IMG/VR virus record: IMGVR_UViG_3300038443_002533
Coordinates: 64,001 to 128,000 of that record
Origin: a virus
Taxonomy: Duplodnaviria; Caudoviricetes
DNA: 64,000 bases
Direction: 5' to 3' (one strand)
In this document: positions 1 to 44,994 of the stretch, piece after piece
Layout: each line of letters starts with the position of its first letter
Position numbering within the stretch: the first letter of the stretch is position 1
Notes under the pieces: generated by a model
Database searches by the model: none
What the model saw: only the letters and a program-made list of their open reading frames with translations
What the model was told of the DNA's origin: nothing
Made by a program: the position numbers and the translations under genes

Positions 1-2
1 GT

Positions 3-737
3 TTTTCGCACACCTACATTAACGTTGATGGCAAAGTAATCGATCAGGATAAGCAACTCTGTCGATTACCGCTCTTGGTGGATTGGGGCTATCTGCAAAT
101 ATACGCAGAGAAACGAACGATCTTTGTTCACCGATTGCTCGCCATGACATTTTTGGAAACTCCAGATTCTATCGAAGGATTGCAAGTTAATCACATCGAC
201 GGTGTGAAAGCGAACAATGCGATTTCGAATTTGGAATGGGTTACGAGAAGTGAGAACTGTCTGCACGCGTATCAAACAGGCTTGCGTGATGAAAACACGC
301 CAGTTCTGGTAAAGGATTTGTACGATGGATCAGTTACCAGGTACTATAGCCTACACGCATGCGCCAGAGCGTTCAACGTGTTGCCAGAAGTAGTGTTCAA
401 CCACCTGAGAGACTACAACTACGGTAAGATCTCGTGGAAACATTACGTTCTTATTCGAGAAGGTCAGGAATGGCCAACGATCGATGAAGATTTAATTGGT
501 TCACATCGGAACGGTTACCCCAAATGCATTGGTGCTGTGCACCAAGAGCATAAGAAGATCATGATCTTCGATAGCATCGGTGATGCGTCGGAGTATTTTG
601 GTTGGAAAAACAATACGCTAGGAATGCACATGCGTCGCTATGGTTCAAGACCGCGCGATGGATGGACGTTCTGGTTTATTGAAGGGGAAAAATGGTACAA
701 CAAACAGGGTGAAGTATTTACAGGAATTGTTGAATAA
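3..737 (+). CDS. Intron-encoded HNH homing endonuclease (I-HmuI/NUMOD4-HNH type), 5' truncated
   Basis: Frame open from position 3; VHRLLAMTF...VNHIDGVKANNAISNLEWVTRSEN HNH motif; two C-terminal NUMOD1/IENR1-like HTH repeats. Confidence 0.92.
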   Translation, partial: FSHTYINVDGKVIDQDKQLCRLPLLVDWGYLQIYAEKRTIFVHRLLAMTFLETPDSIEGLQVNHIDGVKANNAISNLEWVTRSENCLHAYQTGLRDENTPVLVKDLYDGSVTRYYSLHACARAFNVLPEVVFNHLRDYNYGKISWKHYVLIREGQEWPTIDEDLIGSHRNGYPKCIGAVHQEHKKIMIFDSIGDASEYFGWKNNTLGMHMRRYGSRPRDGWTFWFIEGEKWYNKQGEVFTGIVE

Positions 738-1097
738 ACAGTCCTACTCGCTAGAAATGGCGAGCTAGTATCTCCTTAATTGCTGGAAACTCTCGTTAGA
801 CCAATGAGCTACAACGTAACTGGAAACAGTAAGCGTGAATGCTTGAGAATCATTGGGTAGAGACAATCAGCAGCGAAGTTCCTAATGGATTTACGTAACC
901 AATCGTAGTGATATCCTAAGGAAAACGTTCAACGACTAACCCGTAGCGGGGTGTAGGGTCTCAAGCGAGATTCGAAATAGGAGACACCTAAACTCAAAAA
1001 AGAGTAGGTGAAGATATAGTCTGCTCCCCATGGAGACATGGGGCGGGTGTCTGAGCACACCGAGTGAGGAGATAAAGCGACCTCACTGGACACTAGG
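738..1097 (+). ncRNA. Group I ribozyme core
   Basis: P2 747-764 (GAAA loop); P3 TCTCCT 771-776/AGGAGA 979-984; P4 TGCTGG 781-786/TCAGCA 867-872; P7 GACTA 934-938/TAGTC 1017-1021; P7.1, P7.2, P8; P9 1026-1043 (GAGA loop); P9.1, P9.2; P9.0 places omega-G at 1097. Confidence 0.92.
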
Positions 1098-41273: not shown

Positions 41274-42827
41274 ATGCCCATGATTTCACTTCCGATTCCG
41301 GAGACTGTGGAGAGCGTGACCCGTCCAGTGATGTTGGACGTCGTGCGTCAACTCATGACCCTCACCGGCATTTCGAAAAAGACCAACATCGTTTACTTCG
41401 GCGATTTGGAACGTTCCAAACAATTGAATTCCGCCATTGGTGCTTCGGATGAAAAGGATGACCCGAACACTTTTGCGCACAATGACAAGATTTCGATTGA
41501 AGTGGCTGAAACCTACTTCAATGAACTCGGCCACCAAGATGCGGTCGAGCGCCCTGAGAATTTGCTGGTGTTCCAAGATGCCCCGCTGTCGATCGTCATG
41601 AAGCCGATCTATGCCCAAATGGAAGCCACTGTCAGCATTCGCTTCCGGGCCAATAACAAAACCCTGGCGATGCAATGGCGTGACTTCGTCAAAGCTCGCC
41701 TGACCCAAAGCTTCAAACGCGAGTTGTACCTGCACAACGTCACGTATTCGTTCGGTATTCCGGAGGAGTGTTTGTACATTCTGAAGGAGCTGCATCGACT
41801 GCGCGAGAACGTTGCGGGTTTCGGTGAAGACTTCGATACCTACTTCGCCAATCACCGCACACCCAAAATGACCACGGTGCGTAACTTGAGCGCTACCGCG
41901 CAACTCTGGTCCGTACCTGAAACCCAGACCCGCATCCAAGGTTGGTTCGATTGGGAGTTGCCGGAAGAAGCGCAGAAAGATGCTGACGGGACCACGTACA
42001 CGGTCGCGTTCAATTACAAGTTCCGCTATGCACGCCCGACCCGGATCGAGATGATTTACCCGATCATGGTGCATAACCAGTTGCTCGACGCTAAATACCG
42101 CGACACCCCGCTGACGGATCCGAGTGACGTGGAAAAGAGCTACGCCATGACGGCGCGGATCTTCCGTTCGTTTGAAGGGGGGCAGTGGGATTGTAAACAG
42201 ATCCAAGACTTTGGCTTTTCGATTCCGGCGTTCGATGAGTTCTGGCCCAAGATGGTACCGAACGACACCCGGCGTCTGCTCACGGTGTTGTTCACGCTCG
42301 ATGATACCAATCCCCATCAGTTCTTGAACCTGGGTGATTTGAAGTCTCGTCAGCTCCATCCGGATATTCTGGAGTACATCCGCTCCGAACGGGAGTACTT
42401 GACGGTGCCAGGGTTGAGTGCGATTCATTTGGCGCTGTACAAGAATGAATTCCTGATCGCCAACAATCCCGCCCCCTTTAATGTCGATGCCGACCTGAAC
42501 GTCGTTGGGTTGTTGTCGACCAATCTGCGGGTGCAGCATCATTTGCGCATCAGTTTGTTCACTGACTGGCAAAGTCTGCGCGGTGGTGCGTTGCAGCGCA
42601 TGCAAGACCATGGCCGGGCGGCGATCCTGATGTTGATGGCGATTGACCCGTCGCTCAAGGACCGCGGTTTGTTGCCGGTGCTGATTGACGATAACTTCGT
42701 CTCCAAGACCAGCCTCTTGATTGCGATCAACAATCTGCGCCCAACCAAGAACATCCTCACCCCGGGACCGACTGGCATGATGTATACCGTCCAGTCGATG
42801 TTCCAAGAAACCTTTGCGGTGGAATAA
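41274..42827 (+). CDS. Virion structural protein (neck/tail region)
   Basis: 517 aa, SD AGGA; synteny with phiKZ gp98-101 block. Confidence 0.6.
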   Translation: MPMISLPIPETVESVTRPVMLDVVRQLMTLTGISKKTNIVYFGDLERSKQLNSAIGASDEKDDPNTFAHNDKISIEVAETYFNELGHQDAVERPENLLVFQDAPLSIVMKPIYAQMEATVSIRFRANNKTLAMQWRDFVKARLTQSFKRELYLHNVTYSFGIPEECLYILKELHRLRENVAGFGEDFDTYFANHRTPKMTTVRNLSATAQLWSVPETQTRIQGWFDWELPEEAQKDADGTTYTVAFNYKFRYARPTRIEMIYPIMVHNQLLDAKYRDTPLTDPSDVEKSYAMTARIFRSFEGGQWDCKQIQDFGFSIPAFDEFWPKMVPNDTRRLLTVLFTLDDTNPHQFLNLGDLKSRQLHPDILEYIRSEREYLTVPGLSAIHLALYKNEFLIANNPAPFNVDADLNVVGLLSTNLRVQHHLRISLFTDWQSLRGGALQRMQDHGRAAILMLMAIDPSLKDRGLLPVLIDDNFVSKTSLLIAINNLRPTKNILTPGPTGMMYTVQSMFQETFAVE

Positions 42828-42834
42828 TTCTATC

Positions 42835-42933
42835 ATGCCGATTATTGAAGACACTCCCTTGACCCCACCGGTGAATCCGCCGGTGGCTGTGACCGTTGTG
42901 CCTCCTGAACACCGGGGCGTAACGGTTGACACA
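42835..42933 (+). repeat. Copy 1 of duplicated 33-codon gene start (partner 43630-43728)
   Basis: MPIIEDTPLTPPVNPPVAVTVVPPEHRGVTVDT vs MPIIEDTPLTPPVDPPIAVKVVSPEFRGSTVDT, 27/33 aa identical. Confidence 0.95.
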
Positions 42934-43614
42934 ATAAGTCCAATAACGCCGCTTAAAGACCTGTCTGAAAATAGTGGTTTGGATAGGGAACATCCTATCG
43001 GCATATACGTTGCCAATAACAGTCAAACCGGCGACTACTACATTGGTGCTACAACCGAAAGAAAAAGAAGATTGCCGGAACATCTGAGTAAGCTCAATAC
43101 AGGATCGCATAGTAACCAGAAATTTCAAGAATCTTTTAATAGAAACTCTGATTTTGAATGGTTAGAGATTCCGATTGTCACCAGAGAAGATGCTTTTAGC
43201 TTGGAAAGGGATCTTATCAAAGCTTGTCGGGGAGATCCGCATTGCTTGAACTTGAAGGATGCTGTTCCGGTATCTGAAGAAACAAGAGAAAAACACAGAC
43301 AGTACCAGCTTGGTAAAAAGATGCCGGACGGCTTTTCAGAGAAACTTAGCGGCGTGCTGCTAGAACGATGGAAAGATCCTGAGTTCGTGCAGAAGCAAAG
43401 GGAAGCTAGAGTCGGCAGGACTCTTTCTGAAGAACATAAAGCAAATATTCGAGCTTCTAGTTCGTTCACGAAGAGTTCGGTTCCAGTGAATATTGATGGG
43501 GTGATTTACCCAAGTGTTAGGGACGCAAGCACCGCACTTAATGTTCCTTATACCACTGCTGCTAAAAGACTTAATAGTCCGAACTTTCCTAGTTGGGAAA
43601 GATTATCTCCATAA
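42835..43614 (+). CDS. GIY-YIG homing endonuclease fused to a captured 33-aa virion-gene N-terminus
   Basis: GIYVANNSQTGDYYIG, RLPEH, LERDLI, CLN; NUMOD3-like VSEETREK and TLSEEHK repeats; C-terminal HTH; AT-rich. Confidence 0.92.
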   Translation: MPIIEDTPLTPPVNPPVAVTVVPPEHRGVTVDTISPITPLKDLSENSGLDREHPIGIYVANNSQTGDYYIGATTERKRRLPEHLSKLNTGSHSNQKFQESFNRNSDFEWLEIPIVTREDAFSLERDLIKACRGDPHCLNLKDAVPVSEETREKHRQYQLGKKMPDGFSEKLSGVLLERWKDPEFVQKQREARVGRTLSEEHKANIRASSSFTKSSVPVNIDGVIYPSVRDASTALNVPYTTAAKRLNSPNFPSWERLSP

Positions 43615-43713
43615 CAAATGGTGAAATAAATGCCTATAATCGAAGATACACCTCTGACTCCTCCGGTTGATCCTCCTATTGCTGTTAAGGTTGTTTCCCC
43701 TGAGTTTAGAGGT
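42919..43713 (+). mobile_element. Intron-free homing endonuclease cassette carrying a recoded replacement gene start; boundaries approximate
   Basis: GC drops to roughly 35-42% in sampled lines vs about 57% flanks; codon style switches at Gly28 in both copies. Confidence 0.8.
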
Positions 43714-44994
43714 TCGACCGTCGACACACGCTACGAATCGATGCGCTCGCTCCTGAGCCATATCGAAGGTGCGTCCTGGTCGGTGAACTACTACAGCCAA
43801 GTGCTGGGCAAAGACAATGCCCTGTCTGGCCAGAATCTCGATCGTCCCGCTGCCTACCAACAGTACAAACTGATCGAAGACTTTGAACTGAAAGTCACGA
43901 CCCCGCTCAATACCACCCAAGACCAAACCACCAAAGAATTCAACGTCACCGGCCAGGCCCATGTGTTTCCCTGCGGCTTGATCCCGAATGACGGGGACTG
44001 CTTTATTGCCGACGTAGGCGATGGTCGGGAAGCGGTGTTTGAAATCACCAATTCCGAGAAACGCTCGTTCTTGCCGGATGCGGCGTATATCGTCGATTAC
44101 AAGATCGTGGCGTGGTCGGAGCAAGACAGCCGGATCCAAGACCTCAACAGCAAAGTGATCCAGACCCTGCATCTCAGCACCGAGATGATGGACAATGGCC
44201 AGCGCGGTCTGATCGACATCGATGACTTCACCTTGAGCGTGAAGCTGCAAGGGTACCATAACGAGATCGTCGACTACTACTTCTCGCGCTTCATGAGCCG
44301 GGATTTGCGCACGCTGGTGTTGCCGGGTCAAGACTACGCGATTTACGACCCGTTCCTGACGCATGCCGTATTGGCGATGCTGCGCGATGAACAACATCCC
44401 AACATCAAACTCATCCGTGAACTGAATGTCGGGGAAGACGATAACTACTTGACCCCGACCATCTGGACCGCGCTGAACAAGAAACGGCGTAAGGAGTTGG
44501 TGGGTGGGATGCAAAAGGTGGGCCTGGTTTCTACTCGCGCTTTCACGCGTGAACCCAGCATGAACTCGATCCGCTATTCGGGGATTGATTACGTGGTGTA
44601 TCCGATCGATCCAGTCAAGTCCATCGACTACCTGCAACACGACCAAACCAAACCGTTGAGTGATGTGCTCATCAAAGGCACCTCGACCGCGTTGGTGGAT
44701 TTGTTTGATGTGATCCAGATCACCGAACTGAATGGCTTGCCGAGCTTCGATGCTCCAGCCGTCAACCGTTCGCAAAACGACACCTACGTGTTTTCCCCTC
44801 AATTTTACCAACGCACCAATCCGGGTCAATCGGCATTGGAATTGGCCTTCCAGAACTACCTGGACGATCGCGCCATTCCACTACGCACGCTGTTACAGAT
44901 GAGCGTCAGCTACACCAGCTGGGCGCCGCTGGAACAGTTCTATCAACTGCCGATGCTGCTCGCAATGATCCGTGGTGCTCTCCGGAGAATGTAA
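43630..44994 (+). CDS. Virion structural protein with replaced 5' end
   Basis: 454 aa; first 28 codons AT-rich, remainder genome-typical; SD GGTGA supplied by the cassette. Confidence 0.8.
   Translation: MPIIEDTPLTPPVDPPIAVKVVSPEFRGSTVDTRYESMRSLLSHIEGASWSVNYYSQVLGKDNALSGQNLDRPAAYQQYKLIEDFELKVTTPLNTTQDQTTKEFNVTGQAHVFPCGLIPNDGDCFIADVGDGREAVFEITNSEKRSFLPDAAYIVDYKIVAWSEQDSRIQDLNSKVIQTLHLSTEMMDNGQRGLIDIDDFTLSVKLQGYHNEIVDYYFSRFMSRDLRTLVLPGQDYAIYDPFLTHAVLAMLRDEQHPNIKLIRELNVGEDDNYLTPTIWTALNKKRRKELVGGMQKVGLVSTRAFTREPSMNSIRYSGIDYVVYPIDPVKSIDYLQHDQTKPLSDVLIKGTSTALVDLFDVIQITELNGLPSFDAPAVNRSQNDTYVFSPQFYQRTNPGQSALELAFQNYLDDRAIPLRTLLQMSVSYTSWAPLEQFYQLPMLLAMIRGALRRM

Follow-up and report, generated by a model that had tools for sequence, protein, structure and literature searches.

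Several described systems allow an endonuclease gene to reside within a coding gene, and the closest to the locus studied here are found in fungi. Fungal mitochondrial mobile open reading frames (mORFs) make 'gene hybrids', in atp6 of Allomyces macrogynus and in atp6, atp9, cox2 and nad3 of Glomus (PMC3630166). They encode LAGLIDADG endonucleases or, in atp9, a GIY-YIG endonuclease, some in phase with the host gene, and a foreign C-terminus replaces the native one; the two copies are 64-81% identical in DNA, and the protein remains nearly the same (PMC3630166). The WHO elements at yeast FBA1 combine an endonuclease gene with a replacement gene end that confers resistance, and the displaced fragment has been proposed to be an essential homology arm (Coughlan et al. 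2020, PMC7282813). The free-standing endonucleases of T-even phages carry out 'intronless homing', with gene-splitting insertions at mobE/nrdA, mobA/gene 39-60 and seg/gene 43 (PMC2988022), and mobA has also been described together with the gene 60 bypass cassette (bioRxiv 10.1101/2022.08.31.505936). Here we describe a locus in a 64,000-nt stretch of phage DNA (the window), which comprises bases 64001-128000 of the 272,470-bp IMG/VR virus record IMGVR_UViG_3300038443_002533, a record with direct terminal repeats. The start of a head-tail joining gene is present twice at this locus, on either side of a GIY-YIG endonuclease gene. Sequence comparison indicates that this is probably an intron-less and intein-less homing cassette, made up of the endonuclease gene, a foreign upstream-gene end and foreign codons 1-28, which recombined into the head-tail joining gene at about codon 28/29.

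The host genome of the cassette is that of a soil jumbo phage. DNA of this phage is present in a rhizosphere metagenome, from which the record may derive, the GC content of its genome is 54.8%, and the virion protein encoded at the locus has matches in phiKZ-related jumbo phages of Burkholderia, Ralstonia, Xanthomonas and Pseudomonas (30-37% identity). All parts of the locus lie on the plus strand. An upstream virion-module gene (41274-42827; 517 residues, PHROG match phrog_3289) is followed by codons 1-28 of copy 1 (42835-42918). This is the native beginning of the head-tail joining gene, which has become an orphan and acts as the start of a 259-residue fusion open reading frame (ORF; 42835-43614), in which 33 virion-gene codons lead into a putative I-TevI-like GIY-YIG homing endonuclease. 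A 15-nt spacer (43615-43629) runs from the endonuclease stop to codons 1-28 of copy 2 (43630-43713), an AT-rich and apparently foreign replacement 5' end that is now the working start of the virion gene. That gene, a head-tail joining or virion structural gene (43630-44994; 454 residues, PF24214 and PF24215, phrog_3013), would continue with its native body from about codon 29. The inserted cassette is best delimited as 42919-43713 (795 nt, or 265 codons), with a left boundary anywhere from 42919 to 42934, and would contain donor-type codons 29-33, the endonuclease body, the spacer and the recoded codons 1-28.

What defines end replacement in the fungal elements is found here at the 5' instead of the 3' end. 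As with mORFs, an intron-free endonuclease gene lies within a coding gene, one end of that gene is duplicated into a native orphan and a foreign copy, and the foreign copy completes the expressed gene. However, mORFs replace the 3' end and orphan the native 3' end, whereas in the phage the orphan is a 5' end, which keeps the promoter-proximal ribosome-binding site and supplies the endonuclease start; moreover, the host of an mORF is an organelle and that of the cassette a phage. WHO elements are similarly flanked by a displaced fragment, involve no splicing and leave a host gene that evolves as a chimera. They differ in having an intein-derived nuclear enzyme, in replacing the 3' end and in forming tandem clusters by repeated homing, while the phage has a single GIY-YIG cassette at the 5' end, fused to the orphan fragment. 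The T-even endonuclease genes are also intron-free and can sit inside essential genes, spreading by break repair with co-conversion of flanks, but they split the host gene into two polypeptides or use ribosomal bypass, and their enzymes have their own starts. The own start and intergenic position of a free-standing phage endonuclease of the T4 seg type are not seen at this locus. Finally, I-TevI of the T4 td intron (1mk0, 1ln0) resembles the phage enzyme in its GIY-YIG domain, whose catalytic residues are identical, and in a linker followed by a C-terminal region that may bind DNA here too. In contrast to I-TevI, which is encoded in a group I intron, the present gene is not surrounded by a ribozyme, and its product has 33 foreign N-terminal residues as well as a family-specific extension.

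A preliminary description of the locus had presented it as a third way of being harmless in a coding region, besides RNA and protein splicing. As a concept this is not new, since fungal mORFs (PMC3630166) and yeast WHO elements (PMC7282813) already do so at the 3' end. The principle is known, and the 5' version, with an orphan start feeding the nuclease, is a variant of it. According to the same description, a 5'-replacement case is not known from jumbo phages, and our literature search likewise found no phage example of such a cassette. A review of T4 mobile elements (PMC2988022) covers only gene splitting by free-standing endonucleases and does not contain the words 'duplicat' or 'fusion', and a study of ICP1 does not describe the 5'-replacement layout.

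The duplication itself provides the first evidence for an insertion. Codons 1-33 of the virion gene are present twice, 795 nt apart (copy 1, 42835-42933; copy 2, 43630-43728). Our recount reproduced exactly the figures first given for them: 27 of 33 residues are identical, 19 of these 27 are spelled by different codons in the two copies, and among codons 2-28 a G or C occupies the third position in 16 of 27 codons in copy 1 and in 6 of 27 in copy 2. In DNA, the copies differ at 28 of 84 bases over codons 1-28, and the 99-nt repeats are 67% identical. The long ORFs of this genome have a mean G/C frequency at third positions (GC3) of 0.66, and the fraction of 27-codon segments with six or fewer G/C thirds was 1.4e-4 of 7152 sampled. 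The AT-rich third positions of copy 2 therefore far exceed chance. GC3 was 0.37 in the endonuclease body and 0.72 in the remainder of the virion gene, and a codon-usage log-likelihood ratio placed copy 2 towards endonuclease usage (-16) and copy 1 near neutral (-2). Genome-wide, only two AT-rich islands exceed 600 bp, and one of them lies here, at 42901-43700 (GC 0.43, compared to 0.548 for the genome).

The boundaries of the insert can be approached in the same way. In copy 2 the AT-rich style stops at AGA GGT (codons 27-28), and four of the five codons 29-33 end in G or C (P=0.01-0.07 under cassette composition), which places the right junction at about 43713/43714. A flip in codon style at Gly28 had been proposed for both copies; it holds for copy 2, while copy 1 is only compatible with it (2/5, not significant). 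Over codons 29-33, copies 1 and 2 differ at 5 of 15 bases, though identity would be expected at arrival if both segments were native. We therefore favour a model that puts both junctions at codon 28/29 and gives the insert a length of 795 nt. Such a coincidence of the two junctions is the signature of a single crossover within the repeat or, if the donor had the duplicated layout as well, of break repair without co-conversion.

The likeness of the two gene starts extends further upstream. The end of the upstream gene forms a combined Shine-Dalgarno (SD)/stop motif ahead of copy 1 (GGTGGAATAA, at 42818-42827, within the last codons of that gene), and the spacer ahead of copy 2 contains an echo of these last codons and of the SD sequence (GGTGAAATAA, 43620-43629). 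The echo had been pointed out in the preliminary description, and it proved to be real: GGTG[A/G]AATAA occurs three times in the 272-kb genome, counting both strands, and two of the three occurrences directly precede the two ATG codons. The duplicated unit thus appears to extend at least 10 nt upstream of the ATG, and the cassette would carry a remnant of a donor gene junction.

To decide which copy is native, we turned to related viruses. We compared 80 related viral loci or contigs, the nearest of which have 73-79% DNA identity, and found a homologue of the upstream gene in 78 of the 80. The cassette was absent from all 80. Upstream gene and uninterrupted virion gene abut in 78/78 loci where the former could be placed (allowing for alignment ends), and in the two closest relatives (protein identity of 79% and 76%) just 12-13 nt, and no insert, lie between the upstream stop and the virion gene. 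Copy 1 occupies the position at which the cassette-free relatives start this gene, right after the conserved upstream gene. Codon identity gave the same answer. At residues identical to those of the closest relative, copy 1 matched 11 of 22 codons and the gene remainder 64 of 130, while copy 2 matched 4 of 22 (and 4 of 20 for another relative). As copy 1 is in the native position and its codons match at the rate of an orthologue, it is the orthologous start, and copy 2 arrived with the AT-rich insert. Thus, by position and codon identity, copy 1 is native, copy 2 foreign in style and the cassette-bearing allele the derived state, which is the reverse of the native start at copy 2 that the preliminary description had regarded as incompatible with its proposal. 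Its suggestion that an AT-rich element entered the virion gene near codon 28-29 is supported by the codon contrast, by the orthology of copy 1 and by the cassette-free relatives.

One could instead imagine an origin in situ, in which the 5' segment was duplicated within the lineage when the endonuclease arrived and copy 2 then diverged by mutation, with no foreign donor. Both copies are indeed equally close to the nearest relative at the protein level (23/28 for each), and copy 2 has the rare [N/D]-P-P motif of this subclade. However, the 19 synonymous changes are all towards AT and match the composition of the endonuclease, copies 1 and 2 have diverged as far as this phage has from its cassette-free relatives, and in a second strain (below) the cassette is less diverged than its flanks. 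We consider such an origin very unlikely, and continue to regard copy 2 as probably foreign.

Copy 2 also makes a complete virion gene. Its ATG has its own SD sequence at 5-nt spacing, and, in line with the proposal that a foreign 5' end restores the gene, copy 2 and the body together give a full-length ORF of 454 residues, the standard length of the family (full-length relatives have 451-466 residues). In these relatives M1 and P2 are invariant, and G28, V29, V31, D32 and Y35 are at least 90% conserved; this conservation of the N-terminus indicates that the 5' end is a needed part of the functional gene. The public gene call for this ORF (P0152, 417 residues) starts it at Met38, not at the conserved MPII start (window 43630-43743). 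The gene caller was apparently misled by the AT-rich replacement 5' end.

The product of 42835-43614 looks, by sequence, like an intact I-TevI-like GIY-YIG homing endonuclease. Residues 56-130 of the fusion ORF (about 43000-43224) match PF01541 (GIY-YIG) with 28.6 bits, over a cut-off of 22.6, and the C-terminus (about 43483-43596) matches the I-TevI DNA-binding family PF20987 with 18.6 bits, which is below the 27-bit cut-off. The homing endonuclease family phrog_314 covers residues 56-250, and the only sequence matches in the PDB were to the I-TevI catalytic-domain structures 1mk0 and 1ln0 (E=9e-5). In an alignment with ten of the closest homologues, all of which are at most 44% identical, Y58, Y69, G71, R79, H83, H92, E124 and N139 are invariant, and the C-terminal block 'DG..Y.S...A...L......R.NS.NFP.W' is common to the endonuclease and its homologues. 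With the GIY-YIG catalytic residue set complete and a full I-TevI-like length, the enzyme seems likely to be functional. It is encoded by the sole GIY-YIG gene of the genome. On inspection by eye, both copies contain CNNNG cleavage motifs, which therefore give no indication of the cut site.

Where translation of the endonuclease would begin is of particular interest. The homologues are free-standing, each with its own Met and an extension of about 25 residues ahead of the GIY motif. Residues 34-52 of the fusion align with the later part of this extension, while the 33 virion-gene codons take the place of its beginning. From 42934 up to the GIY motif there is no in-frame ATG, and no in-frame GTG or TTG with a good SD sequence. 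As the first residues of the homologues' extension are missing and there is no separate start, the ATG of copy 1 is the only plausible start for the endonuclease. This bears out the proposal that the native ribosome-binding site has been kept for the nuclease, since native codons 1-28 remain behind it and are fused in frame to the endonuclease.

It is also conceivable that the insertion was the same but the fusion is non-functional. Translation of the nuclease would then begin internally or have been lost, and copy 1 would be a dead stub that one-sided, illegitimate break repair left behind, the donor having had an ordinary free-standing endonuclease gene. The homologues are free-standing with their own starts, one join in three would be in frame by chance, and I-TevI has few residues before its GIY motif, which makes a start at TTG codon 48 imaginable. 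The lack of an in-frame ATG, or of a GTG or TTG with a good SD sequence, stands against this, as does the preservation of the ORF with all its catalytic residues. Furthermore, a donor whose endonuclease gene was simply intergenic would not be expected to supply the echo of the upstream-gene end before copy 2. On balance this explanation is unlikely, and a functional fusion started at copy 1 is the reading that we carry forward.

Neither an intron nor an intein was detected at the locus, in agreement with the absence of ribozyme and intein motifs claimed at the outset. Rfam had no match in 42300-44300 even at E<=5, whereas the same Rfam library detected a group I intron (RF00028, 91 bits) elsewhere in the same genome, at window 718-1043. 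Pfam found only the GIY-YIG and I-TevI DNA-binding domains and no Hint domain, and between the nuclease and the gene body lie a stop codon, the 15-nt spacer and a new ATG with an SD sequence. A cryptic self-splicing intron, an intein or translational bypass could in principle remove the insert, making copy 1 the true start of the virion protein, and group I introns with endonuclease genes do occur in this phage group, including in the RNA polymerase beta'-like gene of this genome. We nevertheless find this extremely improbable, as the Rfam and Hint searches were negative over the locus, as copy 2 has its own ATG, an SD sequence at 5-nt spacing and a protein of family-standard length, and as the duplicate would be pointless if splicing occurred. 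A scan of 42300-44000 gave no terminator-like site, and a promoter scan, of a kind that excludes the polymerases of phiKZ-like phages, gave one sigma-70-like site, which was not above shuffle expectation.

The group I intron used as a positive control has features of its own. A 264-residue HNH endonuclease ORF lies just upstream and overlaps it, and the arrangement interrupts the RNA polymerase beta'-like gene within its catalytic NADxDGD motif. The sequence '...GFNAD' runs into AT-rich DNA, and '...YDGDEMN' resumes past the intron (window 1-1043 plus about 60 nt before it; genome 63943-65043). This HNH/group I arrangement presumably resembles the intron endonuclease reported in PhiPA3-type jumbo phages.

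The cassette seems not to be confined to a single genome. Contigs from two RNA-seq libraries of an independent root-metagenome study match 43202-43843 at 97.4% and 43208-43820 at 98.0% identity, and bridge the 3' half of the endonuclease, the spacer, copy 2 and the native gene. By this sequence evidence, the cassette appears to be present in at least one other, non-identical phage. Contigs of flanking genes from the second strain are 92-94% identical (cassette versus flanks, Fisher P = 7e-6 and 1e-3). That the cassette is less diverged than its flanks hints at recent transfer or spread, after which such a pattern would be expected. The two RNA-library runs gave no contig that covers 42530-43200 and showed no joint spanning the cassette, and no RNA dataset was listed for the 5' half of the cassette; we have not used either as evidence on expression or splicing.

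Similarity searches yielded little beyond this. The locus had no megablast match among GenBank phages, a scan of metagenome contigs with the virion protein found no relative, and a protein search with the C-terminal half of the endonuclease, aimed at the contig of the second strain, gave no match. A genome-wide scan for further duplicated gene starts returned, apart from this locus, only tandem paralogue families, and no other cassette of the 5'-replacement kind. These tandem small paralogous genes lie at genome 39930-41500 (about 24 kb before the window) and 185500-186000 (window 121500-122000). Their N-termini have motifs in common (four ORFs in a row, for instance, begin with MNFIKNLWNKVKSFFS-like sequence), and they have no relation to endonucleases.

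Several points weigh against a homing cassette of foreign origin with a functional fusion. No donor was found: word-based and exhaustive protein searches with the endonuclease gave nothing above 44% identity, and no AT-rich relative bearing copy 2 was found. The flanking duplication is absent at six related endonuclease genes (three metagenomic, the others from phages Psa21, RP12 and Moabite), so the layout is not a trait of the enzyme lineage. An in-frame fusion would arise by chance alone in 1 of 3 cases. Codons 29-33 of copy 1 could derive from either the donor or the native gene, which leaves the left boundary anywhere within them. At the inferred junction the working virion gene has Ser29 (TCG, 43714-43716), where the family has Val in at least 90% of cases and copy 1 also has Val; Ser29 may have arisen as a change in this lineage or as a scar of repair, or it may contribute to immunity of the target site. 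Lastly, the second strain is represented by assembled contigs of one study, which give nothing firm on transcription.

How might such a cassette work? The nuclease would be translated from the orphaned native start, the ATG of copy 1, and would cut close to codon 28/29 in related phages whose gene is uninterrupted. A cassette-bearing genome would serve as the template for repair, with homology on the left provided by the orphan native-type copy and on the right by the gene body. Synonymous recoding of copy 2 would destroy the target site, and may also prevent recombination between the 99-nt repeats (67% identical) and hence deletion of the element. The whole scheme would be a mirror image of the WHO model.

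More tentatively, the cassette may be a member of a general class of phage '5'-replacement cassettes', so far undescribed, although we put this forward with slightly less than even confidence. In such a class, one recoded arm would protect the allele, block repeat-mediated loss and rebuild the gene, while through the orphan start the nuclease would be expressed under the signals of an essential late gene. If this is true, the lower divergence of the cassette than of its flanks between the two strains would reflect homing that still goes on among soil phages.

These observations have consequences for how phage genomes are read. Such cassettes mislead gene callers; in this genome the call for the virion gene begins only at Met38, and the orphan start has been annotated as part of the nuclease. 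The chimeric genes that they leave can distort gene trees. Combining the two copies allows the empty site to be rebuilt as a defined substrate on which a new I-TevI-like specificity could be tested. For the biology of these phages, the locus suggests that a homing endonuclease can inhabit an essential structural gene with neither intron nor intein by bringing a spare gene start, and would mean that a trick documented in fungal mitochondria and yeast, there at 3' ends, also occurs at the 5' end and in phages.

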